IMG/VR virus record: IMGVR_UViG_3300021400_001778
Coordinates: 8,923 to 72,922 of that record
From: a virus
Lineage: Duplodnaviria > Heunggongvirae > Uroviricota > Caudoviricetes
DNA length: 64,000 nt
Reading direction: 5' to 3' (one strand)
In this document: in pieces, positions 1,864 to 59,738 of the stretch
How the letters are laid out: the number at the start of each line of letters is the position of its first letter
Position numbering within the stretch: the stretch's first letter is position 1
Made by a program: the position numbers and the translations under genes
The notes under the pieces: generated by a model
The model's input: the letters and a program-made list of their open reading frames with translations, nothing else
Told to the model about the DNA's origin: nothing
Database searches by the model: none

Positions 1864-4800
1864 ATGATGACAAACTGGAAGGATGCGGAAGATGCTTACG
1901 CGGCGGCTATGAATTCTGCGGGTTCAGCAGAAAAAGAAAATCAATCGTTCCTTAACTCTATCGCGGGTAAACAGGCACAGTTTAAATCAGCGTTCGAATC
2001 ATTGTCGAATGATGTAATCAATAGTGACCTTGTTAAGTTCGGCGTTGATATGGGAACTATGATGGTTAAAGGACTTGACGGTGTTATTAATGCGACTGGT
2101 GGCGGATTAGGCACTGTTATTCTCGGCGGATTAGGTACAACTGCCATTAAGGGCGCGGGCGTATTTACAAAGAAATTTACAGAAGGACTCGGCAAAGAGA
2201 AGTTCGGCGAAGTAGTTGCGGAATATGGTAAGATTGGAACAGCAAAAATGATGGGAGAATCTTTGCTGTCCGCAACAAAAGGATTGGGAATGTTGCTACC
2301 CGCGATGGGAATAACAGCGGGTGTTGCAACTGCCGCGGCTGTCGCATTTAAATTATGGGACGATAATACTGAGCAATTAACAGAAGCGCAACAAAAATTA
2401 TCTAATAGTTTAACAAATAGTAATGCCGCAAGAAAGCAAGTTGAGGATATCACTTCTCAAATTGCAAAAAATCAAGAAGAAATTAAATCAATCGAGCAAG
2501 GCGGAGTTTCTTCTGTTGGCGAGGCTTCAAGAGTTGAGCAATTAAAAAATGAAAACGCACAACTTGGAACAAAGTTAACTTATCAAAAAACAATAGCAGA
2601 TGTTGAAGCTAAGAGTGCCGCTGAATCAGCAAGACGCGCAATTAGTATGGATAATGCATATATGCGCAATGGTGTTTCAACAAGTACGTTAACTGGTAAA
2701 ATTGGTCTCGCAATAAATACATTAGCAGGTCAAGGACATAGTAAAGGTATTTATATGTCCGAGGCGGAACACTTAGACCAAGTTACTGATAATTATATAA
2801 AAACTCAGGATGAACTCAATGCCGCTATGGAAAGCGGTAATCAAGAAACAGTTTCGAAGCTACAAGATGAATTAGTAGACTTAAATAAGGAATATTCTGA
2901 AGGATTAAGCCAACAATACGAATATCTTGACGCTTTTACGGATAAATCTACAGGTAAAGCATTATCTGGTTTCGAGAAGGAATATCAAAGTGCAAGAAAT
3001 CAGATAAATAAAATGCTTAGACCAACGATGGGTGATGACCAATTCCTCAATACTATCCTCGGTTATGGTGAATACGAGGGTGTCGCAGAAGAACTCACAA
3101 ATATGGCTTTAAATGGTGGGTTCAGCAAAGGGTGGGAAAACTCAACACAAAGTATTAGAGATTTTGTGAATGAAGTCAATGCCTCTGGAATGGATAACGC
3201 CGCTAATAAAATTAAGAATCTTTTCACTGGAATTGCAAACGGTTCAACAGATGGGTCTGTTGCTCTTGCGCTTGTGGAAGATAATTTTGAAAGCGTAACC
3301 GAAAGTATAAATGATTTTGAAAATAGATTTTCTAATACTGCGGCGGCGGCAAAAGGCGGATTTTCTTCAAAGGGATTGTCGTTTGGCGAAAAGGGTATTT
3401 TAGGTAGTAGGTATGATTCTGCTATTCAAACAACCGCGAACGGATTTAGATTGAATTATTCAGAATTTGCTAAAAATAGGGCAAGTTCAATTTCTCGTCA
3501 AAGAGCCGATAATCAAGCTGATATAAAACAACTTCAATCATACGGAGATAGTTTAGCGAAATCATATCAAAACATTCAAGATAAAATTGCAAAAGCAAAT
3601 TCGCGTGATGCAAGGCAAGGCGGTTTAGGTGCTGAAAGTATTAGTGAATTAAAATCACAAGCGGCGCAATATGCGCAAGCTATAAAAACCGTTCAAGCAA
3701 GTATAGGAAACTTAAACGATGCGCAGATAGAATTATCTGGTTTAGGTTCTAAATTAAATACATATCTTGATACAGCAAGCGGTGATTATGAATCAACTAA
3801 GAATCTCGATGCAGTTGCCGCATCGTTCGCAAACTTAAAAGAAGAAGTCGATAGAGGTTGGACGAGCGGCGCTCAGGCAAGAGCGTTTACGGACGCTTGG
3901 ACTTACGCGGATATGACAAAAGCAAGTAATCAAGAGATTGCGGATTCTTATGCCGAAGCAGAAGCTAACTACAAAAAGTTCTATGATGTAACACAAAACG
4001 AACGCAGCGGAAAATGGGAATCTGAAATAAATGGCACTAAAATTCTTTCTGAACTTAACAGCGCGGGAGAATCTTTAGGAAAAACTTTTGTTGGTGCTAA
4101 TAAAGATATTAAAATGTCCTCGGAAGATATTGCTAATGTTGCTAAAGTTTGGGGTGTATCAGAATCAATGGCATCTGAACTTGTCGGAGCATTAGATGGA
4201 TTCGAAGGGCATTCTGTAGAAATATCGAGAGTTGGCAAATCCTATGACCAATTAATGCAGTCTATCGGCGGTGCAGATGAAGCGTTACAGAAATATGGTG
4301 ACGGCATCGAAACCGTTGATAAAATATCTAAATCCACAGAAAGTCTGGCGAACCATCTTAATGATGTGCAAGAAGCCCGACATGCGGCATCTCAATCAGA
4401 TGATATTGATAGTTTCAACGCTTTAAACGCCGAACTTGCAAAAACCGCGAAACTCGCGGCACGAGTTGAAGAGCGCAATGGGTTTGAGAATAATCTTATG
4501 AACTTCAATGCTTCTGATTCTTCTTCAATGGATTTTAAGAATAGAATTGAATTACTTAAAGATGCGCAAGAAGCTGTTGAGGACTTAAATTATACTAAAA
4601 CCGTAGATAAATATGCCCCCGGAATGCTTGGCGTAGATGCTGTTAGCACGGCAGAAGGAGCTGTTGATAGCGCAAATCATGCTATCGCGCAATATATTTC
4701 AGAAAATGGATTAGCTTCAGACCTCGAAGGGTTAAGCCCAGACGCCACGCAAGAGGAAATAGCTGATTATATATCTGGTATGGAAATCAGCGACTTAGCA

Positions 4801-8109: not shown

Positions 8110-8934
8110 ATGACGGTGCAAGCTAAAGATTTTATGTTTAACGGTGTATTGTTATCAAGTTTAAATAATGATTATGAACTTGTTTCATTCGATACTTCAC
8201 CGTCAGACACAAGTGTGGGCTTTATGGATAATAAAGTCGAAATGAGCGATATAAATTATAATTCACCAGTCGTTCATTTTTATCATTCAACTGCAAAAGA
8301 TACGTTGCAATTCGATATTATGATATCGAAAAGGAATGGTAAATATTTAACACAATCAGAAATCCGCGAATTATCTGGTTGGTTAACAAGTCCTATCTCT
8401 CCTAAAGTTTTATCGTTTGTTAAATATAAAAGAGATGATGGGACGGCGGTTTATGAAGATTTAGAATATATAGGCGTGTTTAATAAAGCAGAATATTCTG
8501 AAATGGGACAAGTACAAAAAATGGGTGTAGGTTTTAGCTTCACGAATATATCTGCATTTGCTTTTACGAAAGAAAGTGAAGTGAATGTAAATAATACGTT
8601 GGAAGATAAAACTATTATTATATCAAGCGATGGAACTGCAACTGGATTACCAATATATCCCGTTATAGAGATAATGCCGACAGAAGATGGTACAGTTTTT
8701 ATTACGAATCTTTCTAATAAAAATGATACTGGTTTTGGAGTAAACGTCAAAAATGGGGAAAAAATAGTAATTAAAGATTTTAATGTATTTTCTGATGATG
8801 GCAGTTTATACAGCTTTGACAATTTAACAAGTTTAATGTTCCCATACTTAATTGACGGAGATAATGAAATTAAAATACAAGGCAGATGTACTTGTAAATT
8901 TATTTATAGATTTTTAGAAAATATAGGTGTTTAA
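8110..8934 (+). CDS. Distal tail protein (Dit)-like structural protein; the ATG at 8110 is preferred over the longer ORF starting at 8062
   Basis: Position immediately after the tape-measure gene; ggagg ribosome-binding site at 8095-8099 precedes the ATG at 8110. Confidence 0.45.
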   Translation: MTVQAKDFMFNGVLLSSLNNDYELVSFDTSPSDTSVGFMDNKVEMSDINYNSPVVHFYHSTAKDTLQFDIMISKRNGKYLTQSEIRELSGWLTSPISPKVLSFVKYKRDDGTAVYEDLEYIGVFNKAEYSEMGQVQKMGVGFSFTNISAFAFTKESEVNVNNTLEDKTIIISSDGTATGLPIYPVIEIMPTEDGTVFITNLSNKNDTGFGVNVKNGEKIVIKDFNVFSDDGSLYSFDNLTSLMFPYLIDGDNEIKIQGRCTCKFIYRFLENIGV

Positions 8935-18820: not shown

Positions 18821-20143
18821 TCATTCTTCAAACTTATCTTTGAGTTTTAAATAAAGTTCGTATAATTCTTTTTCTCTGTCGCGCGACAAATTATTTTTAT
18901 AATCGTCAAGAACGGCTTTAGATGGTGTTGTAATAGCACTTAAACTTTCTTTTGTTGCATGGGTATATACATTTTCTGTATTAATCGCCCTGTGTCCTAC
19001 CATAAGTGCTGTACTAACTACATTCGCCCCTTTCGCATTATTAGCGATAGATATAGCTGTATGTCTTAAAGAGTTAATTGATAATCCTTTCATTCTCCCT
19101 GTTTTAGTTAAATGTACATCTCTATCAATCCCCATCTTATCGCAAACTAAATTAAAGCCAACGCGCATAGTTGCGTTACTTCTTCTTTTGCCGTTTCGGA
19201 ACGTGGGATAGAGTAAATCATCTGGATTATTCAGACAATGCAACTTAGTTTGTTCTTGCATATACTCAACACATTCTCGGCATAAATCGGACATAACAAC
19301 AAACCTACTTTCGCCGTTCTTCGGTACTTTCACATATTCTTCTATGCCGTTATTCTTCTCATTGTTTATGAATCTCGTTGAACGTGTTTCAACAATGTTA
19401 ATTATATTCTGTCTAAAGTCAATGTTACTATTTCGCAAAGATGCAAACTCGCTTTCTCGCATACCCGTTTCTAAAAGGAATAGTATTACAACTGGATACT
19501 CGCTAATATTTTTCTTATAAGCGTAATAGAATTTTTGTATGTCCTCGGCGGTAAATACTTCTTTGCGATTTTTTAATTCTTGTTCGCGTTTGTGGTCGTA
19601 TTCGTCTGCTACTTCTCGCGGTACTCTTGCAATTTTCGCGTAATTCTCATCTAACAAACTTCTGTTTACAAGGTATTCGCAACACCTTCTGCATAGTTGA
19701 ATAGGCAAAGAGCATGTTTTTCTTGATTTCTTTTCAAGGATTGAGTTGTAATAACTTTCAAATTCTGTCGATGTAAGCAAATGAAGCTGATAATTTGCAA
19801 TCGGGAATGGATAGAAATTAACCTTCATATTTGAGCAGTAAGTTTTATAACCACTTGCAGTTATATTCGGCTTAATCTCGTTATCTATAAACTCGCTCAT
19901 ATATTCGCCAAATGTTTTACCTTTTGGAATTTTCGCATCCTTTCCTTTCTCTATCTCTTTCTCCCAAGCACGTTTAGCCATTAGCGCGTTTTTCTGCGCT
20001 TCTTCCTTTGTGCTTCCCCTTCTTTTAATTCTTTTTGCATTACCTGTTTTGGGATTTGGATATTTCGCAACCATAACGCATTCATATTTACCGTCCGTTA
20101 ATTTTCTTACGCTACCCTCTCCGTTTTGTGCCTTATTTCTCAT
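18821..20143 (-). CDS. int: Tyrosine-type integrase (site-specific recombinase, 440 aa) with an N-terminal arm-binding domain
   Basis: C-terminal catalytic motifs ...LRHTAISIA...MVGHRAINTENVYTHAT (R...HxxR...Y); N-terminal AP2-like segment SVRKLTDGKYECVMV. Confidence 0.85.
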   Translation of the reverse strand: MRNKAQNGEGSVRKLTDGKYECVMVAKYPNPKTGNAKRIKRRGSTKEEAQKNALMAKRAWEKEIEKGKDAKIPKGKTFGEYMSEFIDNEIKPNITASGYKTYCSNMKVNFYPFPIANYQLHLLTSTEFESYYNSILEKKSRKTCSLPIQLCRRCCEYLVNRSLLDENYAKIARVPREVADEYDHKREQELKNRKEVFTAEDIQKFYYAYKKNISEYPVVILFLLETGMRESEFASLRNSNIDFRQNIINIVETRSTRFINNEKNNGIEEYVKVPKNGESRFVVMSDLCRECVEYMQEQTKLHCLNNPDDLLYPTFRNGKRRSNATMRVGFNLVCDKMGIDRDVHLTKTGRMKGLSINSLRHTAISIANNAKGANVVSTALMVGHRAINTENVYTHATKESLSAITTPSKAVLDDYKNNLSRDREKELYELYLKLKDKFEE

Positions 20144-25730: not shown

Positions 25731-26033
25731 TTAATCACCGTTTATATAAAAAGCATTATTGTCGCATTCAACGAAAATAACATCTTTACCTCTACCATAA
25801 TGATTTCCCGCATAACATTCACCCATTATTTGATTATGAATATTTTTAAAGTATTCAATATTTAACTTAATGTATTCAATCGCGCCCTCTTTTGTTTCAA
25901 AATCCTGTTCTGTTTCCCAAAAGAACGCCCGTTGATTTGTTACAAAAAACGTGTCTATATCAGGACAAAAGGCTATAACATAAGTATCATGTTCTCTCAT
26001 TGCGTCATCTGGTATTTCTTCATAAATTATCAT
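25731..26033 (-). CDS. Hypothetical protein (100 aa)
   Basis: ORF whose start is coupled to the stop of the upstream gene. Confidence 0.3.
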   Translation of the reverse strand: MIIYEEIPDDAMREHDTYVIAFCPDIDTFFVTNQRAFFWETEQDFETKEGAIEYIKLNIEYFKNIHNQIMGECYAGNHYGRGKDVIFVECDNNAFYINGD

Positions 26034-28390
26034 TTATTTCTCCATATCACTAAATGTCTATCTACATTATTGCACAAAGTAATTTCATTCCTAATGGGAC
26101 ACCCGCCCATGCATTCATTTCTTCTTTTACAGTTTGGACATGAGTTTCTAAAAATATTTCTAAAGTTTTCAAAAACATTACTATCCCATGCGTTTTGAAT
26201 CGTATCATTAGAAATGTCATAAGCCCACTTCATATCCTGATTATCAAAGCTACAAGGTAACGCTTTCATATCAGAAGTAATATACATACTCCATCTTCCG
26301 CCCTCGCAAGTATCAAAGCTATCTGGATTTACTTTTGTAGTGTAATTAATAAGCGCGGGAACTGTGCAACTATCAAATCCAATCTTAAAATTGTGGTCTA
26401 CATTTTCGATAGCTTCAAAAAATCTCTTTACTCGCGGGTCATCTGTGTGTAATACTTTTTCCTGTGTACCTAATCCAACTGGCTTATAAAGCAGAAAAAT
26501 TACAGCGTTGATACCTTTCGGAAAATCATTATTCTCAATTCTTGTAATAGCTTCATCAATGGAATTATTACTAAGAACGTAATGAATATTTGTTTTAACT
26601 CCCGCATTTAGTAGTAAATTTACCGCTCTCTTTGTGTATGGTGCATGATGCTCGGATACAGCCACCGCTCCACAATATTTTTTACATAATTCAGCCTTTT
26701 CTTTTGTCATCATTATTCCACTTGTAGTAAAATTTGGAACAATATTGTATTTTTTACAAATTTTAAGTAAATCTTCAAAATTTTCATGGGTATCAACGTC
26801 ACCCGCCCCACCCATTGCGCAATTATGAGAAACAATAAAATGTGTTGTCACAAACAAGTGTTCTTTTGAATTTATATTTATATCAATAACTCTTCTTTTA
26901 CCGACATTTTTTATTGAATTTACAATGTATCCTTTTCTATGTCTCAAATAATTCTCATTATGTTCTACATTTATAATTGTATTTAAAAAATTGTCGTAAT
27001 CTATGTGTTCAGAAATTACTTTATAAATTTTTCTAATCTCTAATAAATTTGATATTATAATTCTATAGCGTTTCTTTCTATTTATAATCCTTTTATCATT
27101 TTTTGAAAATTCGAATTGTCCGCCATTTTCTGTATTTACGGAATAATCAACATTTATTTTTGATAAAAGCATTGTTAAATCTTTGAACAATTTTTCGCTT
27201 GAAGTATTAAAAATAATTTCGCCATAATTACCATCATGTGTTTTAATATCTATATTGCCATCGCAAAAATAACCTTCAAGAAAATACAAAATCATTTCAT
27301 CGCTTACGCTATATATGAAAATCGGTAACTGTTTTTCTCGATTAGGAGTTCTACATCCAAAAATATTGTCAAATAATTCTTCATGGAGCATGTTACTACT
27401 TAATTCAATTATACAAGCACCTTGCGAATATCTTGTTGTATATGAGAAATCATCAAAACAATTCTGTAGACATTTTTTTATTGAATCAATCATTTTTGTT
27501 TGTTTTTCATTTACAACATATCTCCTTCGCGAACCATTACCAATATAATGACCAAGTAATATCATAAAATCTTTCGTTATTGGATATATCGTTTTAAGCC
27601 TATAGGGAGAACGAGCTTTTGATATTTTTGCGTCTCTATAATTTATTTCCTCTAAATGATTTTTAATTTTTGATATTAATACAGTTTTATTCCTATTCCT
27701 TTTAATGTTATATTTATTGCATACTTCCATTAAACCTTCACAGTCTGATAAGAAAAAATAATCGTCTAATCCGCGGGAAATAATTAATTTAACAACATCA
27801 ACTTCATTGATTGATTGTATATTCTTTTTGTTTTTAGCAGTTACGAATTCGTCCCCTACTTTTAATTCTTCAACAGTTTTTAGACCATCCACTGTAAGAA
27901 ATTTATGTTCTTTTGTTGCTTTAATTGTTTTGCCGTATCCGATATTTATTTCATATACATCGTCATATTTTTCGCGTTTTTCATATACATCGTGAAAACC
28001 GTCTCCGCAATAAATATTATCTCCGACTCTAATATTTTTAATGTATACACTACTTATATAGTTACCAGATTTGCGTAAAACAACTTCATCTTCGTGTAAA
28101 CATTGAAACATTTTACCAGACGATTCTTTCATTATTTTTTCGAAGTTTTCGACGCTCATATTTTTGCCTTTGCGCTCTATTGCTTTTTGATAACAATCAA
28201 CATTACAATATTTTGCACAAACACACGTTTCCATAACCCCAACGTCAATAAGTTCTGGAAATGAAGACATAAATGGGTCTACGCCAGTATCAACACCATT
28301 CTCAATAATCCCTGTTCTCGCGTAAAATCCAGTTTCCGTATTAAAGGTTGAAATATATTTATATTTAGCATCGTGTTTAGTGATAATCAT
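26030..28390 (-). CDS. Radical-SAM/SPASM-like Fe-S enzyme (exteins ~359 aa) interrupted by a LAGLIDADG intein
   Basis: N-extein Cys cluster TCVCAKYCNVDC; C-terminal SPASM-like CPNCKRRNECMGGCPIRNEITLC (Cx2Cx5Cx3C); inserted 427-aa element begins CLHEDEVVL and ends FIVSHN followed by C. Confidence 0.55.
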   Translation of the reverse strand: MIITKHDAKYKYISTFNTETGFYARTGIIENGVDTGVDPFMSSFPELIDVGVMETCVCAKYCNVDCYQKAIERKGKNMSVENFEKIMKESSGKMFQCLHEDEVVLRKSGNYISSVYIKNIRVGDNIYCGDGFHDVYEKREKYDDVYEINIGYGKTIKATKEHKFLTVDGLKTVEELKVGDEFVTAKNKKNIQSINEVDVVKLIISRGLDDYFFLSDCEGLMEVCNKYNIKRNRNKTVLISKIKNHLEEINYRDAKISKARSPYRLKTIYPITKDFMILLGHYIGNGSRRRYVVNEKQTKMIDSIKKCLQNCFDDFSYTTRYSQGACIIELSSNMLHEELFDNIFGCRTPNREKQLPIFIYSVSDEMILYFLEGYFCDGNIDIKTHDGNYGEIIFNTSSEKLFKDLTMLLSKINVDYSVNTENGGQFEFSKNDKRIINRKKRYRIIISNLLEIRKIYKVISEHIDYDNFLNTIINVEHNENYLRHRKGYIVNSIKNVGKRRVIDININSKEHLFVTTHFIVSHNCAMGGAGDVDTHENFEDLLKICKKYNIVPNFTTSGIMMTKEKAELCKKYCGAVAVSEHHAPYTKRAVNLLLNAGVKTNIHYVLSNNSIDEAITRIENNDFPKGINAVIFLLYKPVGLGTQEKVLHTDDPRVKRFFEAIENVDHNFKIGFDSCTVPALINYTTKVNPDSFDTCEGGRWSMYITSDMKALPCSFDNQDMKWAYDISNDTIQNAWDSNVFENFRNIFRNSCPNCKRRNECMGGCPIRNEITLCNNVDRHLVIWRNK
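26822..28102 (-). mobile_element. Intein (~427 aa) with a LAGLIDADG homing-endonuclease domain inside the radical-SAM-like gene
   Basis: Intein block A CLHEDEVVL; LAGLIDADG-like MILLGHYIGNGS and LYFLEGYFCDGNI; terminal blocks ...KRRVIDININSKEHLFVTTHFIVSHN with +1 Cys. Confidence 0.6.
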
Positions 28391-38016: not shown

Positions 38017-39297
38017 TTATGCTGTTTGGATACTCGCGACTTTAGCCGTGAGAGGAAAACAACTTCTCCTTTCTATAAGATATCCATTAACATGTTCTAA
38101 TAATTTTAACTTCTTATAACTAATATTTCCTTTATTCACTTTATCTCCACTTAAATTTCTTATATCAAAATACCCAGTTTTTCTTCTTGCGAAGATAAAA
38201 TACTGTTTCCCTTGATACATTACTCTATCGTATAAATGAAACCCATGTATATCATAATCTGTCTGATTTCTTTTCTTTACGCCACCTTTGCAGATATTGA
38301 ATTTATGAATTTGGCGATTATGTCTTCTAACTTTCCTATAATAGTAAATACAATCATCGTCTTTTGCTAATGTATTTCCGCTAATACATCGCGCGTCTAT
38401 ATAATGTTCTTTCGGCAAACCATGAAGAATCCTACTGTTCTTTGTAATATATCCGAATGTCATAGATACATCTTTATATCTACTTTTTAATTCGTTGTAG
38501 AACGCCCATCGCATAATCCCCATAAACGTTGCGTCTCTAAAAGACATGCCACGTTTGATTGTATTAGGAAGTTTTACCGTCCCATTGTGATATCCTTTGT
38601 GGCAAGTTTCGCAAAGTGTAATTAAATTGTTTGGCGCATCACCACCCGTCTTTCTACTTTCGATATGATGAACATTTAAAATCTTATCTTTTGACTTACC
38701 TTTACAGCATTGGCAAGTGTGACCATCTCTGAACAATACATATTCACGCACGTTCCAAAATCCAAGCTGTTCACCCTCTTGATACATTTCGTTATGTATA
38801 TCAGGGTTTTTAATCTTCTGTATATCAAAAGACGCTGTTTCAACCACAATCTTTGATATAGGAAGAATATTATAAATCTTATCAACCACAGATAAATGCG
38901 TTTCAATTTTGTGTCTGATGCTTGGCGATAACCATTTCTCGCATCGCTTTCGGTTGTTGAAACGTGCTTTGCGATATCTTGTTTTGCGATTTCTTCGTTC
39001 TTTTCTTGCTCCGCGCCTTGTAGATAACTTCTCTACAATATCGTTTCGGAGTTCTACTTCCGATTCAAATAAAACTTGATTACTTGTAGTTGCTGATAAT
39101 CCTATAGTTTTACTTCCACTATCAACTCCAAGAGAGATATCTTGAATAACATTTCCAGTTTCGTATAATAATTGAATCGTGAACGGATTTTTATTAATTA
39201 CCTTTGCTTTATTGTCTCGCAAAAGTCTTCTTACTTTCCCAAAACGCTTCGTTGGCATTAAAGGTTTTCCGTCTCGATTTATCACATAAACAAACAT
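38017..39297 (-). CDS. iscB: IscB (OMEGA-system RNA-guided nuclease, IS200/IS605-associated ancestor of Cas9)
   Basis: N-terminal PLMP domain (INRDGKPLMPTKRFGKVRRLL), RuvC-I (ISLGVDSGSKTIG), Arg-rich bridge helix, HNH (CQCCKG...NVHHIESRKTGGDAPNNLITLCETCHKGYHN), RuvC-III (KEHYIDARC); 426 aa. Confidence 0.85.
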   Translation of the reverse strand: MFVYVINRDGKPLMPTKRFGKVRRLLRDNKAKVINKNPFTIQLLYETGNVIQDISLGVDSGSKTIGLSATTSNQVLFESEVELRNDIVEKLSTRRGARKERRNRKTRYRKARFNNRKRCEKWLSPSIRHKIETHLSVVDKIYNILPISKIVVETASFDIQKIKNPDIHNEMYQEGEQLGFWNVREYVLFRDGHTCQCCKGKSKDKILNVHHIESRKTGGDAPNNLITLCETCHKGYHNGTVKLPNTIKRGMSFRDATFMGIMRWAFYNELKSRYKDVSMTFGYITKNSRILHGLPKEHYIDARCISGNTLAKDDDCIYYYRKVRRHNRQIHKFNICKGGVKKRNQTDYDIHGFHLYDRVMYQGKQYFIFARRKTGYFDIRNLSGDKVNKGNISYKKLKLLEHVNGYLIERRSCFPLTAKVASIQTA

Positions 39298-39620
39298 AAT
39301 ACTCCTATGATATGTTTTGTTGTTGTAAACCAGTACATATCAACTGTAAGATAACCATCGTCAATGTTATGGAAAGGTTTACATATGCACAACACTGTTC
39401 CTACCCATTAGAACTGTTTAATCATGCGTCGTAGAGTTACAGACTTGGTTATACATCCGTAAGTACCTATACATTCTTTCCTAACGTAGTGTCCGAAACA
39501 CTTAGACTAATCAATAACGAACTTTCGCAAGTCCGTGACTTTAGTCATGGGTTATTGACGCTCTTTCCACTATTTCAAGAGCATCACTTAATATTGAATT
39601 TACCATAAATATGCCTCCTA
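39298..39620 (-). ncRNA. Candidate omega-RNA (HEARO-type) for IscB: ORF-free, higher-GC region immediately 5' of iscB
   Basis: About 320 nt with no ORF and many inverted repeats, in the position expected for an IscB omega-RNA; a promoter lies just upstream at 39627-39655. Confidence 0.5.
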
Positions 39621-52627: not shown

Positions 52628-53446
52628 TTATTCTTCTACCAATTTAATAAATTTTGCTGTACCTCTATTTAAATCTTCGAGAGAATTAAATTTACTTACG
52701 CCACCCGTCGGTCGTACATCTCCATCATCATCTATAAGTTTACCATCGGAAATTTCATAAACCTTTCCAAGTGTGTATCCTTCGTACTCTTTTGTACAAA
52801 CAACTTTCATATTAAACTTTTTATTGTAAATTTCATCCTTTGATTCAGTGTATAAATCGAAGCAACTACAATCTACCCACCAGTAGTCGCTATTATTACC
52901 TTCTTTATGCACCTTCATTCGGAATTTAAGTTCTGGTGTCATTCTAATATTTATTTCTGAAACAACACCAATCCAACCTTTATTTGTCAAAGCGTAATGG
53001 TTCTTGTCATTACCTATAACTTTATCACCAACAGTAAATCCTAAAATAAGGCGACTGAAAGCGAGAATTGCACCAGTTTTAAAATCATACTTATCCTTCG
53101 GATTGCACTTTGCTGTACACTTTTCTTTGGTGTTTTTGTTAAGAGCGGTGACAACGCTCCCATTATTGTAAATCACAATAGATTCCTTAGATGGCAATTC
53201 TTTTTCAACCTTCTCTAAGCCGCGTTCATCCCAAATATACGGTGGGATATCAGATAATATATAATAAATCATACCATCTTTATTTGATGATACTGATTCA
53301 ATAGTATGTTCTTCGCCAATATACTCATTCATTCCCTCTTCACCAACCGACCAATTACCAGTGTAATTTTCGATTTTTGAGCCATCCATGATTCTTACTT
53401 TATCGCCAACTTTGAACTTACCAGTAATTTTTTCTTCTTTCATTTC
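52628..53446 (-). CDS. Hypothetical protein (start taken at MKEEKITGKF; the longer ORF would overlap a tRNA-like gene)
   Basis: ORF lying between tRNA genes. Confidence 0.4.
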   Translation of the reverse strand, partial: EMKEEKITGKFKVGDKVRIMDGSKIENYTGNWSVGEEGMNEYIGEEHTIESVSSNKDGMIYYILSDIPPYIWDERGLEKVEKELPSKESIVIYNNGSVVTALNKNTKEKCTAKCNPKDKYDFKTGAILAFSRLILGFTVGDKVIGNDKNHYALTNKGWIGVVSEINIRMTPELKFRMKVHKEGNNSDYWWVDCSCFDLYTESKDEIYNKKFNMKVVCTKEYEGYTLGKVYEISDGKLIDDDGDVRPTGGVSKFNSLEDLNRGTAKFIKLVEE

Positions 53447-53474
53447 AAAAACCCTTTCTTTTTTATTTTTAATA

Positions 53475-53543
53475 TTGGAGTGGCGGGATTCGAACCCGCA
53501 CTCCGTTGTACAAACGTACTCTTCCACTAAGCTACACTCCGAA
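53475..53543 (-). tRNA. tRNA-like gene of atypical length (~68 nt) with canonical D- and T-arms and a C1:A72 mismatch; anticodon uncertain (GUA, Tyr-like, if a 3-bp anticodon stem is assumed)
   Basis: Reverse complement CGGAGTGTAGCTTAGTGGAAGAGTACGTTTGTACAACGGAGTGCGGGTTCGAATCCCGCCACTCCAA; T-arm GCGGG-TTCGAAT-CCCGC. Confidence 0.35.
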
Positions 53544-53544
53544 C

Positions 53545-54230
53545 TGGCGACCCCTTGTACTTCGGTGGTACTTTAATGCTCATTAACACACCAGTTTTAT
53601 GTACGTTCGATTTGGTTACGGCTACTCTCGACAAAGTAACTATTGCGCACTGGTCACTTCCGTACAAAATACACTTACAAGCTACCGAAAGCCCGCCCCT
53701 TTGCCTTTACTCTTATTACGCTACGTGAGGGTTTTAAGTGCCACTTGTCGCCAAGCACAACCTGTCGTTTTACGCGCATATGCGGTATATTTCACTTGTA
53801 AGATGGCAGAAAAGAGATATTTATCAGCTAATATCACTTTATACGCTACCTATTTTCTCCTTATAACCACCCCCAACACACCATTCGCTGATAAATACGT
53901 GATTATAAGGTAAAAAATTCTTACGCATCTGCCTATTGTTCTGATAAGGATTTGCACCTTACATGCAAGAGTTTTTAAACCACGCGTGCTAACTATTGTA
54001 TGCATCCAATCCCTTGCACAGCACGCTTTACGTCTACCTATTCCGCCACAGAACATGTTATTTTGTCTCCACAAAGGTTACAAACCTAAGAATCGAAATC
54101 ACGCTTTCGCTTCTCATTTTGAACGGGTTCGCGCGACCCGCCCGCGCCGATTTTAAGTTATATTATATCGGGAACTTAGGCAGTCTAAAGGAAACTTACC
54201 ATCCCTCTGCTGTTTGAGTATACAGCATAA
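53545..54230 (-). ncRNA. About 690-nt ORF-free, GC-enriched region flanked by tRNAs and downstream of a strong promoter: candidate large structured ncRNA (ROOL/GOLLD-like); strand assumed from co-orientation with the tRNAs
   Basis: No ORF of 60 aa or more apart from two short overlapping ones on both strands; GC-rich helices such as cgggttcgcgcgacccgcccgcgccg; ROOL and GOLLD RNAs are typically found next to tRNAs in phages. Confidence 0.45.
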
Positions 54231-54314
54231 TGCGGATAATGGGATTCGAACCCACATGGTTAAATAACCGAGGGATTTTAAGTCCCTTGCGTCTGCCAAT
54301 TTCGCCATATCCGC
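54231..54314 (-). tRNA. tRNA-Leu (anticodon UAA), long variable arm
   Basis: Reverse complement GCGGATATGGCGAAATTGGCAGACGCAAGGGACTTAAAATCCCTCGGTTATTTAACCATGTGGGTTCGAATCCCATTATCCGCA resembles bacterial tRNA-Leu(UAA). Confidence 0.7.
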
Positions 54315-54483
54315 TTATTTGGCGGCGGTTACAGTGTGAAAACCGTACATTGAAAAAGAAAGGAAGGATAATAGCCAAAGAACTAACTATAACCACCGCC
54401 ATTAAAGGAAGAAAAAATATGAAAAACTGTGCCGAATGCACATGTATTTGTTTTTTTCGTGTTATCTCCTAACCACTGTAGCC

Positions 54484-54512
54484 ATTATACTACTTATGTT
54501 CCCCTTTGTCAA
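54484..54512 (-). promoter_or_regulatory. Sigma-70-type promoter TTGACA-17-TATAAT on the minus strand driving tRNA-Leu, the large RNA and the tRNA cluster
   Basis: Reverse complement TTGACAaaggggaacataagtagTATAAT, near-identical to the promoter at 33526-33554. Confidence 0.5.
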
Positions 54513-57560: not shown

Positions 57561-59738
57561 TTATGCCGCTAAATGCCCACGTAGTTTAGGCACGTACTCA
57601 GTATTAAACATATAATGCTCAGTTTTTGCCGCTTTATTCTCTTCGTAAATTGGTTTTAAGCAACGTGTACAGTATTCGAAATACTCTTCGTTTGGCGAGA
57701 TATCAATACCTAAGAATTCCGCGCCCTCGACAAGTCCGTTAATACCAACTGTCAAGAATTGCTTATCCATATTGATGAATCCCGCGTCATAAATCGGAAG
57801 CATCTTTGCTTTCAAGAAATCACGCAGATTATCATCATAAGCGATTTGATACTTGTGTACTAATCTCACCTGTTCTCTGATTTTGCTGTCTAAATAGTTA
57901 TAAAACTCTTCTTTATCTCTCCACTCCTTATACTTATATGCGTCTTGCACAAGTCGATTGAAGTTAATTGTGATAACACTCTTGCTACCTGTTGATACGC
58001 CGCCCGCTCCGAGAGTATACGAGAATGTATTGTCTTGTAGTTCGTTGCGCAAACGACAGTTGTAATTATGGATACCATTCGCGAGAGTAAACATATCATC
58101 AGTCTTATCATCCATTTCAAAACAGTACACTTCATCATCGTAATCATATTTTTCTATGGATTTGATTCTGAAATAATATTTACCATTATCACAGATATTA
58201 TCTTCTGATTCTTCTAATTCGTTCGAGTTATATCTACTCAAGCAGTAGAATTTTAAACCATCTTTTTCAAAAGTATATCTGCGCGTTATACACCCATCAA
58301 TAGTACATATAGCATCTAAACTATCCGTAAATCTTTCGCATAAGCTACTATACACATTCGTATCTGAGAATACACCGTCTAATAATCCTCGTCTGAATTC
58401 GTTATCTATAAACGCCCACCTTAAATTAACTTCTAATAAACGATGATTCCGTATTAACGCTCCGTAATTATGACCCATTCTGTATAAATCCAAATCATTA
58501 TCATCGAGGAATGTGTCATAAGGTGTCGAATTAACCATTAAATAATCATTGGTTGTAAGGTCTTTTGTTAATTTCATACCACCGAAAACATTATTTCTAT
58601 GGTTGTCGGTTGCTATCATCTCCTTGTTATTTGTTAAAGTAACCTTATACATCTGTCTATTCGGTAATTTAACAAGTTTACCTTTACACCAACGTCCATT
58701 ATTGAATATCTCGTATCCATTATCATCAAATTTCATTGACTCAATATCTTCAAATTTTACTCTATAAACACTTTTTGAGTCTTTAATTAAAACATAGGTA
58801 TCTTTTGAGTAACAACATGAAGCTAACGAATCAACTGAATTACTGCGGTACATAAAGAACGAATGTCCTTTAGCCCACATTTCAGCAACAAAATCGGCAA
58901 ATTCTTTATCTACATAATCAACTCCATCATCTAAAAGATTTACTGTTTCAACAGGGAAAGTGAGAATTGTTCTCAGACGTTCTCTATTGAACCAATTCAT
59001 AAACTTTTTCTGTAACCACAGCACTGATTCATACTGTGGTTCTGTGCCATCGGGGAATACAAAATCCTCGAAGATACTTTCAAAGTACGGTCTGTCAAAA
59101 TAAGCGATATTCCAAAATACGCTCTGGTAGTTTCTCGCCGCCGCAGGTTGATTTAAACTGTAAACAACTTCTTGAAAGCACTGACTAATTACACTGTCAA
59201 TATCTCTGCGTCTTTTTGACAAATCAACAACTTCATTGCTTCTTAAATAATAGTCATCTCCGTATTCTTTGCGGATAAAGTAATCCATATAAGTTAAAAA
59301 CTCAGGTGTACTTACCGCGCCCGCAAACTGCGATGCAACAGCAAAAACAAGATTCACAAATGACCCGCAAAATGACTGTAAATTCTTCGGCGGTTCTGAA
59401 ATACCGCCAATATTTTTCATCCCTTTAAATAAATACGGATACATTGTAATGCTAACGCAGTACGGATAAATACTTGTTTCATCATGTTTATAGATTTGAT
59501 GTTTATCTAACTGCTCAATGTATTTTTCTGCTACTGCTTCGCCAAATAATTCTTTCTGTTTGTCGTACATCATTGTACGGTTAATTCCAATCATTAATTT
59601 TTTTGGAATCTCACCAGTTAAGGTTGTAATATTTTTGTTTTCTACATTAGCGTTCGAATCTACCGCACTACCAGTTGCGGCGTTCGATGCTCTCGTATAC
59701 TTCTTAATGAATTTTATTTCGCTATCATATCTCTTCAA
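57561..59738 (-). CDS. nrdD: NrdD N-terminal exon (725-aa ORF) containing an approximately 250-aa intein
   Basis: ...RLRNELQDNTFSYTLGAGGVSTGSKSVITINFNRL... is typical of class III RNR; the segment between SLASC and CRLRNEL is an insertion. Confidence 0.7.
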   Translation of the reverse strand: MKRYDSEIKFIKKYTRASNAATGSAVDSNANVENKNITTLTGEIPKKLMIGINRTMMYDKQKELFGEAVAEKYIEQLDKHQIYKHDETSIYPYCVSITMYPYLFKGMKNIGGISEPPKNLQSFCGSFVNLVFAVASQFAGAVSTPEFLTYMDYFIRKEYGDDYYLRSNEVVDLSKRRRDIDSVISQCFQEVVYSLNQPAAARNYQSVFWNIAYFDRPYFESIFEDFVFPDGTEPQYESVLWLQKKFMNWFNRERLRTILTFPVETVNLLDDGVDYVDKEFADFVAEMWAKGHSFFMYRSNSVDSLASCCYSKDTYVLIKDSKSVYRVKFEDIESMKFDDNGYEIFNNGRWCKGKLVKLPNRQMYKVTLTNNKEMIATDNHRNNVFGGMKLTKDLTTNDYLMVNSTPYDTFLDDNDLDLYRMGHNYGALIRNHRLLEVNLRWAFIDNEFRRGLLDGVFSDTNVYSSLCERFTDSLDAICTIDGCITRRYTFEKDGLKFYCLSRYNSNELEESEDNICDNGKYYFRIKSIEKYDYDDEVYCFEMDDKTDDMFTLANGIHNYNCRLRNELQDNTFSYTLGAGGVSTGSKSVITINFNRLVQDAYKYKEWRDKEEFYNYLDSKIREQVRLVHKYQIAYDDNLRDFLKAKMLPIYDAGFINMDKQFLTVGINGLVEGAEFLGIDISPNEEYFEYCTRCLKPIYEENKAAKTEHYMFNTEYVPKLRGHLAA
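58059..58814 (-). mobile_element. Intein in NrdD (about residues 309-560), with a degenerate LAGLIDADG-like region
   Basis: Begins CYSKDTYVLIKD (block A-like), has TDNH (block B-like TxxH), ends ...VYCFEMDDKTDDMFTLANGIHNYN followed by Cys; RRGLLDGVFSD is LAGLIDADG-like. Confidence 0.5.

Follow-up and report, generated by a model that had tools for sequence, protein, structure and literature searches.

The window analysed here is a stretch of 64,000 nucleotides (nt) of the IMG/VR virus record IMGVR_UViG_3300021400_001778 (positions 8,923 to 72,922), which belongs to an uncultured phage of about 136 kb. Its source contig is NODE_89 of ENA ERZ12302850. A gap of 689 nt was located at 53542-54230(-), in a region where all surrounding genes lie on the minus strand. 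It was bordered by tRNA-Leu(UAA) at 54231-54314(-) on one side and by a 67-nt tRNA look-alike at 53475-53541(-) on the other. A preliminary description of this block had set its limits at 53545-54230 and had proposed one large structured RNA, resembling ROOL or GOLLD, between tRNA genes. The position was confirmed, with tRNA-Leu(UAA) as one neighbour and a look-alike as the other. Comparison with related phages identified the block as a real, conserved and folded non-coding RNA region. It was structured, non-coding and co-oriented with the tRNAs, but was better described as an array of parts than as one large RNA. The array comprised a strain-specific 5' segment, a first tRNA-like element (tRNA-like A), about 340 nt of conserved domains, a three-way-junction module of 53 nt and a second tRNA-like element (tRNA-like B).

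Genomic context

The tRNA-Leu(UAA) was canonical according to ARAGORN and scored 60 bits with the Rfam tRNA model. Upstream of it, the consensus promoter that had been noted before was confirmed as a perfect sigma-70 match (TTGACA-17-TATAAT, 12 of 12 positions) at 54484-54512(-). It consisted of the -35 hexamer TTGACA at 54512-54507, a 17-nt spacer and the -10 hexamer TATAAT at 54489-54484, and was kept in the IMG/VR relative L001 and in other relatives. Downstream of the block, an open reading frame (ORF) of 271 amino acids (aa) was present at 52628-53443(-), with its ribosome-binding site directly after tRNA-like B. It was followed by tRNA-Gln and then tRNA-Ile. All elements were co-oriented, and no strong terminator separated the promoter from the ORF that follows tRNA-like B. 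Neither the 271-aa ORF nor its neighbours had an informative Pfam or PHROG match, so that the neighbours gave no indication of a function. The block had a G+C content of 42.4%, compared to a window mean of 34.9% (standard deviation 4.0), which placed it in the top 3% of 689-nt windows. It was thus G+C-richer than its surroundings, as first described, although the enrichment was not extreme.

Conservation and non-coding nature of the block

Relatives were fetched with homologues of the neighbouring 271-aa ORF, a graded series, as anchor. This yielded about 12 distinct syntenic loci of metagenomic phages with the order dUTPase, promoter, tRNA-Leu, block and ORF. From window position 53965 downwards, the nucleotide identity of the block was 77-94% in these relatives, comparable to the 78-90% of the flanking thyX and 271-aa ORF. 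A stretch of 78 nt (53673-53596) was 100% identical in most of them. In L001, the core was absent and about 55 nt at the end of the block were kept together with the tRNA-like element. GenBank phages contained nothing like the block, and distant blastn matches covered tRNA-Leu only. A protein-pattern scan of JGI metagenomes for the neighbouring 271-aa ORF found nothing.

The block had been called ORF-free, which was roughly right. Mechanically, ORFs of 104 aa (plus strand, 53599-53913), 74 aa (minus strand, 53850-54074) and 73 aa (plus strand, 53996-54217) were present, but none of the three stayed in frame in the relatives or had a match in Pfam or PHROG. A protein gene hidden on the plus strand, with 104 aa in the window, might be suspected from the long open plus-strand frames in most relatives, for which gene callers listed products of 129-167 aa in L018, L067 and L068. 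However, the stop-free frames moved between relatives, and amino acids therefore differed at positions where the nucleotides were kept. Among 32 distinct indels in the core, 26 were not multiples of three. Variable columns fell on the three codon positions of the antisense ORF in the numbers 37, 29 and 31, showing neither codon periodicity nor a third-position excess. The orientation was also opposite to that of every neighbouring gene. Frame, indel and codon-position tests all failed to indicate coding, and no frame-shifted protein gene was found across the block. A hidden gene is extremely improbable, and the antisense 'genes' of 129-167 aa are artefacts.

Secondary structure of the array

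Pairing was evaluated for 102 proposed base pairs in 12 sequences, with slid partners and 500 shuffles as controls. Altogether, 95.3% of the cells were paired, compared to 39-50% with slid partners. Both sides had changed in 12 of the 102 pairs, compared to 3-6 with slid partners, and none of the 500 shuffles attained the score. The helices thus covaried between homologues, as would be expected of the structured RNA proposed at the outset. The secondary structure was complex; the module, the long-range helix of domain 2 and the tRNA-like stems were well supported, while domains 1 and 3 were weakly supported or untestable.

The lineage-specific 5' segment (54063-54230(-)) comprised 168 nt with 44% G+C and contained G+C-rich hairpins. 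It was common only to near-identical contigs of the window and, in part, to L014. At this site, other relatives had about 50 nt of AT-rich spacer together with a short hairpin. The many GC helices reported for the whole block were confirmed for this segment, particular as it is to the strain and its closest contigs, but mostly not elsewhere. Compensatory differences to L014 were read from the alignment (GCUGU/ACAGC versus GUUGC/GCAAC; CGAAA/UUUCG versus AUAGA/UCUGU). A second promoter-like site (TTTAGA-16-TATAAT, 10 of 12 positions) was located in this segment at 54162-54189(-) and was not kept in L014.

The core was divided into three domains. Domain 1 (53805-53933(-)) was closed by the stem GGCAGA/UCUGCC (53933-53928 with 53810-53805), which was 100% paired. 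Inside, a candidate pseudoknot was formed by Pa (CCUUAUAAUCAC/GUGGUUAUAAGG) and Pb (AUUUAUCAGC/GCUGAUAAAU). Pa showed compensatory changes, yet was only 74% paired column by column, and Pb was 86% paired with no covariation, so that the exact fold of this domain is uncertain. Domain 2 (53674-53802(-)) was held by the long-range helix CUUACAAGU/GCUUGUAAG, which was 100% paired and included two covarying pairs. It enclosed the helix CCGC/GCGG, the hairpin CUUG-GCGA-CAAG and the conserved junction strands GUGAAAUA and CGGUAG. This domain recurred in the unrelated contigs L089, L091, L095 and L086, there with GCAAGU/ACUUGC. Domain 3 (53596-53673(-)) corresponded to the 78-nt stretch. Its helices UGUACG/CGUACA and GUUACUUU/AGAGUAGC are predicted and lie beyond the covariation test because the sequence is invariant.

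The three-way-junction module

The last part of the block, at 53543-53595(-), was a three-way junction of 53 nt. It comprised the helices S1 (ACUGGU/GCCAGU), H1 (UGUU-AAUG-AGCA) and H2 (ACCACC/GGGGU), the invariant junction UUAAAGU and, on H2, the 9-nt loop GAAGUACAA with the palindromic centre GUAC. A covariance model, R1, was built from eight sequences and applied to candidates from two pattern scans of IMG/VR. It gave 77.9 bits for the single copy in the window and recognised 29 copies with 28 distinct sequences, each situated amid the tRNA genes of a viral contig. The module was absent from 50,697 GenBank phages, and because no cultured phage in GenBank carries it, it is at present visible in metagenomes only. 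In bacterial and archaeal genomes, a 19-nt core pattern had six matches, which were considered chance hits because all scored weakly with the model (about 20 bits).

With helices refined from the newly found variants, 99.2% of the cells were paired across the 28 versions and 10 of 18 pairs had changed on both sides. The covariation score was 0.40, compared to at most 0.14 for slid partners, and none of 500 shuffles reached 0.40. Judged from these alignments, the module is a robust motif. Three earlier drafts of its fold were discarded. A tRNA lacking the T arm, with a GUAC/GUAC hairpin, was replaced by a CCNCC/GGGGG helix after inspection of L021 (UUCUC/GAGAA) and L064; an alternative H-type pseudoknot was not preserved in L064; and H1 as UUAAU/AUUAA gave way to UGUU/AGCA once CGUU/AACG variants appeared.

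H1 and the junction (53573-53595(-), GUGUU..AGCAU-UAAAG) resembled the base of helix 43 and the adjoining junction (AUGUU..AUCAU-UUAAAG) in the 58-nt GTPase-associated centre of Escherichia coli 23S rRNA (L119, 1692-1749), which is also a three-way junction. A mimic of this centre, which has a UUUAAAG junction, was rejected as an identity of the module; R1 gave no match to E. coli 23S rRNA, and the likeness is kept as a lead only.

The surroundings of the module varied. In 17 of the 29 copies, the module was followed after 1-7 nt by a fold of 66-171 nt in total that included an acceptor stem and a T arm. In L087 and L113, tRNA-like A was located just 3-4 nt before the module, which identifies the core as an insert in a minimal cassette. 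On this sequence evidence, the minimal cassette comprises tRNA-like A, module and tRNA-like B, and the core of about 340 nt in the window is an elaboration inserted there. A further arrangement was observed in L062, a more distant phage with a 271-aa ORF homologue of 50% identity. Here, tRNA-Leu was followed by a different structured segment (3166-3500), which shared GCUACUACGGCGAAAGGCUGUG ... CGGUAGCG with L001 (5609-5830), and then by tRNA-like A with the acceptor UAUCCGG/CCGGAUA, but by no module. The parts of the array thus appear to be shuffled between phages, since L062 shares a segment with L001 and has tRNA-like A without the module.

The loop of H2 had the general form GAAG-NN'-CAA with 9 nt. 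Its central dinucleotide was GC in 19, UA in eight and CG in one of the 28 distinct sequences and was never non-complementary, so that the central tetranucleotide was always GGCC, GUAC or GCGC. Switches had taken place in different module lineages: L098 and L084 carried GUAC beside GGCC relatives with near-identical stems, and the clade of the window had both GUAC and GCGC. Adjacent bases within one loop are unable to pair with each other. An intramolecular partner for the GUAC of the loop was also considered and rejected, as the other GUAC sites of the block remained unchanged when the loop was GCGC. Palindrome switching of this kind has been used as evidence for symmetric intermolecular kissing loops in L9.3 of OLE and L21a of GOLLD (Kretsch et al. 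2025, PMC12286853). By analogy, the palindrome is suggestive of kissing-loop pairing between module copies.

tRNA-like elements A and B

The core and module were enclosed by two elements with tRNA features. tRNA-like A (53936-54055(-)) had a 7-bp acceptor stem, UGUUCUG/CAGAACA, with the discriminator A. Its D arm, GCGGAAUAGGUAGACGU, was tRNA-Leu-like and nearly identical to that of tRNA-Leu, and its 6-bp T stem GUAAGG/CCUUAU carried the T loop UGCAAAU. The anticodon arm was missing. Instead, an insert of 67 nt was present, made up of a linker (about 10 nt) and a long stem. A pattern search of the fetched loci retrieved 13 distinct versions, with inserts of 48-133 nt and with seven different acceptor sequences, each of them paired at 7 of 7 positions. 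tRNA-like A was called neither by Rfam nor by ARAGORN with default settings.

tRNA-like B (53475-53541(-), 67 nt) began 1 nt past the module and ended 31 nt ahead of the start codon of the next ORF. It reached 46 bits with the Rfam tRNA model at a threshold of 29, while default ARAGORN gave no tRNA call. The anticodon arm was cut to 13 nt (CGU-UUGUACA-ACG). In most relatives, this arm was a 3-bp tetraloop hairpin, and L014 and L001 had other sequences. Acceptor, D and T arms were kept and covaried, with stems 100% paired in 12 sequences.

Neither element passed the test for a canonical decoding tRNA, i.e. a 5-bp anticodon stem with a 7-nt loop, and they cannot decode because the anticodon arm is lost. 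The features of substrates of ribonuclease P (RNase P) and ribonuclease Z (RNase Z), namely acceptor, T arm and D arm, were present in both. These enzymes recognise the stack of acceptor and T arm and do not need the anticodon arm. In L094, L096 and L098, a third kind of tRNA-like element was present between tRNA-like A and the module. It had the acceptor GAUCCUAU/AUGGGAUC, the T arm UCUGG-UUCAACU-CCAGA and an odd central region.

Pieces of tRNAs without anticodon arms could also be debris of a tRNA island, i.e. decaying tRNA pseudogenes with spacer that are conserved through close kinship only. The strain-specific segment of 168 nt would agree with such a view, as would a module content that varies between phages and an overall identity no higher than that of neighbouring genes. 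However, compensatory changes kept the acceptor of tRNA-like A paired in all seven sequence versions, and the helices of the module were paired across 28 versions from otherwise unalignable contigs. The 78-nt stretch was invariant while the adjacent ORF differed by about 20%. Debris is therefore improbable, since decay would not preserve pairing.

Relation to known RNA families

Known RNAs were searched with Rfam 15, using gathering thresholds for the whole window and E ≤ 10 with lax filters for the region 53300-54500 on both strands. At gathering thresholds, the matches in the window were four of the tRNA type and one HEARO RNA elsewhere. The additional matches in the region 53300-54500 at E ≤ 10 were all at chance level. 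ROOL and GOLLD had no match in the window at gathering thresholds and none in the 1.2-kb slice at E ≤ 10. The Rfam 15 models also found neither family in the block of L020, the most divergent relative, nor, at gathering thresholds, in any of 22 distinct loci that were related or carried the module. For GOLLD, the Rfam searches gave not even a partial match, including its universally conserved 3' region.

The proposed membership in ROOL or GOLLD was consequently not borne out, but the likeness in genomic habit was: a phage tRNA island, the same strand as the tRNAs and a variable next to a conserved part. A divergent member of either family would fit the shared context of phage, tRNA island, consensus promoter and probable rumen or gut source. 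Tentatively, the contigs point to a host among the Bacillota of rumen or gut. In GOLLD, too, the 5' part is variable, the 3' part is conserved and a tRNA or tRNA-like element is included, and the palindromic-loop signature is common to both cases. Against this stand the empty Rfam searches, and the unit that recurs across phages, a 53-nt junction with tRNA-like elements, fits neither published architecture. We consider membership very unlikely.

Identity with a transfer-messenger RNA (tmRNA), a group I intron or any other catalytic or mobile RNA of known type was similarly improbable. ARAGORN called a tmRNA at 53476-53699(-) with a tag of 30 residues, mobile elements are numerous in the genome (two inteins, an IscB-like element with HEARO RNA), and the putative pseudoknot of domain 1 has a topology that may recall such RNAs. 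However, the call was restricted to the window and was made in none of 13 related sequences, and the frame of the 'tag' was broken by indels. The best Rfam match was the permuted tmRNA with 14.6 bits (gathering threshold 47), limited to the T arm. The T arm of tRNA-like B had triggered the call, which was rejected as a false positive. No Rfam intron, RNase P or ribozyme model matched at E ≤ 10. tRNA-Leu was intact and no flanking gene was split, in agreement with the first view that the block is not an intron. The block appears, from these searches, to be an undescribed family with no model in Rfam 15. The motif was not found in the searchable literature, with the overlap to the 10,006 candidates of an IMG/VR catalogue of structured RNAs (PMC10690425) left unchecked.

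Proposed processing and self-pairing

We favour, with moderate confidence, a modular non-coding RNA that is released by RNase P and RNase Z and pairs with itself. The block would be transcribed as part of one polycistronic tRNA-operon transcript. The tRNA look-alikes would act as processing handles, because they have kept the features for RNase P and RNase Z and have lost those for decoding. Cleavage by RNase Z would take place on the 3' side of tRNA-like A, and that by RNase P on the 5' side of tRNA-like B. The product would be a stable RNA of about 390 nt (window about 53935-53542) with three core domains and the module last, so that the closing stem of the module would seal the newly formed 3' end. 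The cassette of other phages would free much less, in some of them little beyond the module. The self-complementary GNN'C in the 9-nt loop of the module would allow two copies to pair loop to loop, resulting in a dimer or, with further contacts, in a higher oligomer as in OLE, ROOL and GOLLD. The flanking look-alikes provide a testable prediction for the excision of the RNA.

Several observations weigh against this model. The z-scores of the minimum free energy were -0.7 for the minus strand and -1.9 for the plus strand, which is unremarkable, and folding energy was uninformative. Since thermodynamic stability alone was unexceptional, the evidence for structure was drawn from the relatives. 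Relatives with a full block were close (about 80-95%), and much of the core, above all domain 3, was invariant and therefore structurally silent. The pseudoknot of domain 1 is weakly supported by the alignment. The palindrome comprised three loop variants, and with the outer G and C fixed, each change has a chance of about one in five to be self-complementary. Composition also varied, as in L001 with a module but no core and in L062 with tRNA-like A but no module, so that the parts may act independently and not as one RNA. Processing of the transcript and stability of the released RNA are inferred only. Finally, 12 of the 29 module copies had no detected tRNA-like fold downstream (some of these loci were cut), and in L064 the module directly preceded an ORF, about 30 nt before its start.

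A role of the module in a downstream 5' untranslated region is therefore possible. The module, with or without the core, might be a cis-acting 5' element of the unit behind it, for example one that guides processing, has a stabilising effect or regulates in the manner of a riboswitch. Its place immediately before a tRNA-like fold, at a distance of 1-7 nt, or before the ORF of L064 would suit such an element, and the invariant 7-nt junction UUAAAGU together with the conserved H1 would be expected of an aptamer or protein site. However, the partners downstream were heterogeneous, including tRNA-like folds of 66-171 nt, other structured segments and unrelated ORFs. An expression platform, such as a terminator or a sequestered ribosome-binding site, was not present next to the module, and the self-complementary loop would be left unexplained. 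A cis-acting function is thus regarded as rather unlikely.

Going beyond the released, self-pairing RNA, the module with its palindromic loop could serve to assemble a third class of RNA-only homo-oligomers from phage tRNA islands, independent of ROOL and GOLLD, in which the tRNA-like elements would be handles and possibly cargo or docking points. This is a tentative proposal that we would not yet expect to hold. tRNA-like A might be charged, because the tRNA-Leu identity features in its sequence (D arm and A73) are kept. If the proposal were true, a third unrelated family would suggest that self-assembling RNAs are a general trait of phage tRNA operons instead of two curiosities. The family is unusually tractable, with a conserved core unit of 53 nt and graded forms that range from the module by itself to a module joined by about 340 nt.

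Comparison with other systems

ROOL and GOLLD are encoded by phages and prophages, frequently within or next to tRNA islands, where they are probably transcribed together with the tRNAs, and they have several domains with a variable region (PMC5737381, PMC12286853). In GOLLD, the 5' region varies, the 3' region is conserved and the linker sometimes contains a tRNA (PMC5737381, PMC12286853). Both form homo-oligomers via kissing loops, for which palindrome-switching loops are the comparative signature (PMC12286853), and the biological role of both is unknown (PMC5737381, PMC12286853). The block shared the setting in a phage tRNA island, the variable and conserved parts and the palindrome-switching loop. 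It differed in that the Rfam covariance models saw no similarity in sequence or structure, that the widely conserved unit was a small junction of 53 nt, that the tRNA-like elements were integral parts with lost anticodon arms and that the large core of about 340 nt was limited to one phage clade. Oligomerisation of this RNA is proposed by analogy from the palindromic loop, in contrast to an observed assembly.

The loop was similar to L9.3 of OLE and L21a of GOLLD, where a central self-complementary tetranucleotide also lies between purines and the palindrome jumps, here between GGCC, GUAC and GCGC. In contrast to these, only 4 nt are involved with an invariant outer G and C, and pairing is predicted from the sequence. 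Other systems with loop-loop pairing are the HIV-1 DIS and the pRNA of phage phi29. The rings of phi29 pRNA are formed by two different complementary loops and not by one palindrome.

For the proposed processing, the 3' end of MALAT1 is a comparable case, which is made by tRNA-like cleavage at mascRNA; MEN-beta and the tRNA-like/miRNA transcripts of the gammaherpesvirus MHV68 are further examples. As in these, a look-alike with acceptor and T arms but no working anticodon arm lies directly 3' of a structured element, and an RNase P cut would generate the 3' terminus of the preceding RNA, which a stable structure closes off. In contrast, these examples are eukaryotic or from eukaryotic viruses, and their protective element is a triple helix, whereas a three-way junction is present here and cleavage is predicted. 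The tRNA cluster of phage T4 encodes RNAs C and D (species 1 and 2), small, stable, non-tRNA species of about 120-140 nt that share transcription and processing with the tRNAs. Like ROOL and GOLLD, they have no known function, and they are not known to have a self-complementary loop. The block shares with them the occurrence of a non-tRNA RNA inside a phage tRNA cluster, but no sequence relation is expected. A likeness to tmRNA lies in the tRNA-like domain joined to a large structured insertion, as reflected in the ARAGORN report. The tRNA-like elements of the block differ in being self-closed folds that are not made by the two ends of the RNA. Moreover, a conserved tag frame was lacking and no Rfam tmRNA match exceeded 15 bits. 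Annotation of such loci calls for caution, as they gave a false tmRNA call, a 'tRNA' without an anticodon arm and antisense ORFs listed as genes.

Leader of the tRNA operon

Between the promoter and tRNA-Leu, a transcribed leader of about 160 nt was located at 54315-54477(-). It was 95-98% identical in relatives, a value exceeding that of most genes. A hairpin with a U-run was present at 54442-54428, about 35-50 nt past the likely start. A second hairpin of 14 bp (54400-54387 with 54334-54321) covaried with L001, as read from the alignment. The loop inside it was CU-rich, UCCUUCCUUUCU, and similar to the 3' end of 16S rRNA. The leader may be an attenuator or an anti-Shine-Dalgarno-like element. 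On the opposite strand, an ORF of 17 codons, MKNCAECTCICFFRVIS, was detected at 54420-54472(+) behind a strong ribosome-binding site (AAAGGAAG, 7 nt, ATG). From this start, the frame in L001 stayed open for over 40 codons. The ORF probably exists only as a side effect of the conserved hairpin in the leader.

Further elements of these genomes

A non-coding cassette of about 251 nt was found between tRNA-Gln and tRNA-Ile in several relatives, where the window has 7 nt. It was located at 4018-4268 in L011, 1876-2126 in L014, 3988-4239 in L020 and 3992-4235 in L021. In L015 and L016, a copy with 74% similarity (2626-2811) was located after tRNA-like B and preceded an odd 'tRNA-Met' of 84 nt. Compensatory change was seen at least once (CUGCAAGG..CUUGCA versus CUGUAAGG..CUUACA). 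The cassette, which the window lacks, represents a second structured element in these tRNA operons and is movable.

Outside the tRNA region, the HEARO RNA was located at 39346-39559(-) with 131.7 bits, directly upstream of an ORF of 426 aa (38017-39297(-)) with RRXRR and HNH domains. Together (38017-39559), they resemble an RNA-guided nuclease element of the IscB type. An intein was present in the anaerobic ribonucleotide reductase NrdD (57561-59738(-)), and a second intein ORF with a LAGLIDADG domain and a SPASM-like end was present at 26030-28390(-). A tyrosine integrase was encoded at 18821-20143(-), in a genome that is rich in selfish elements.

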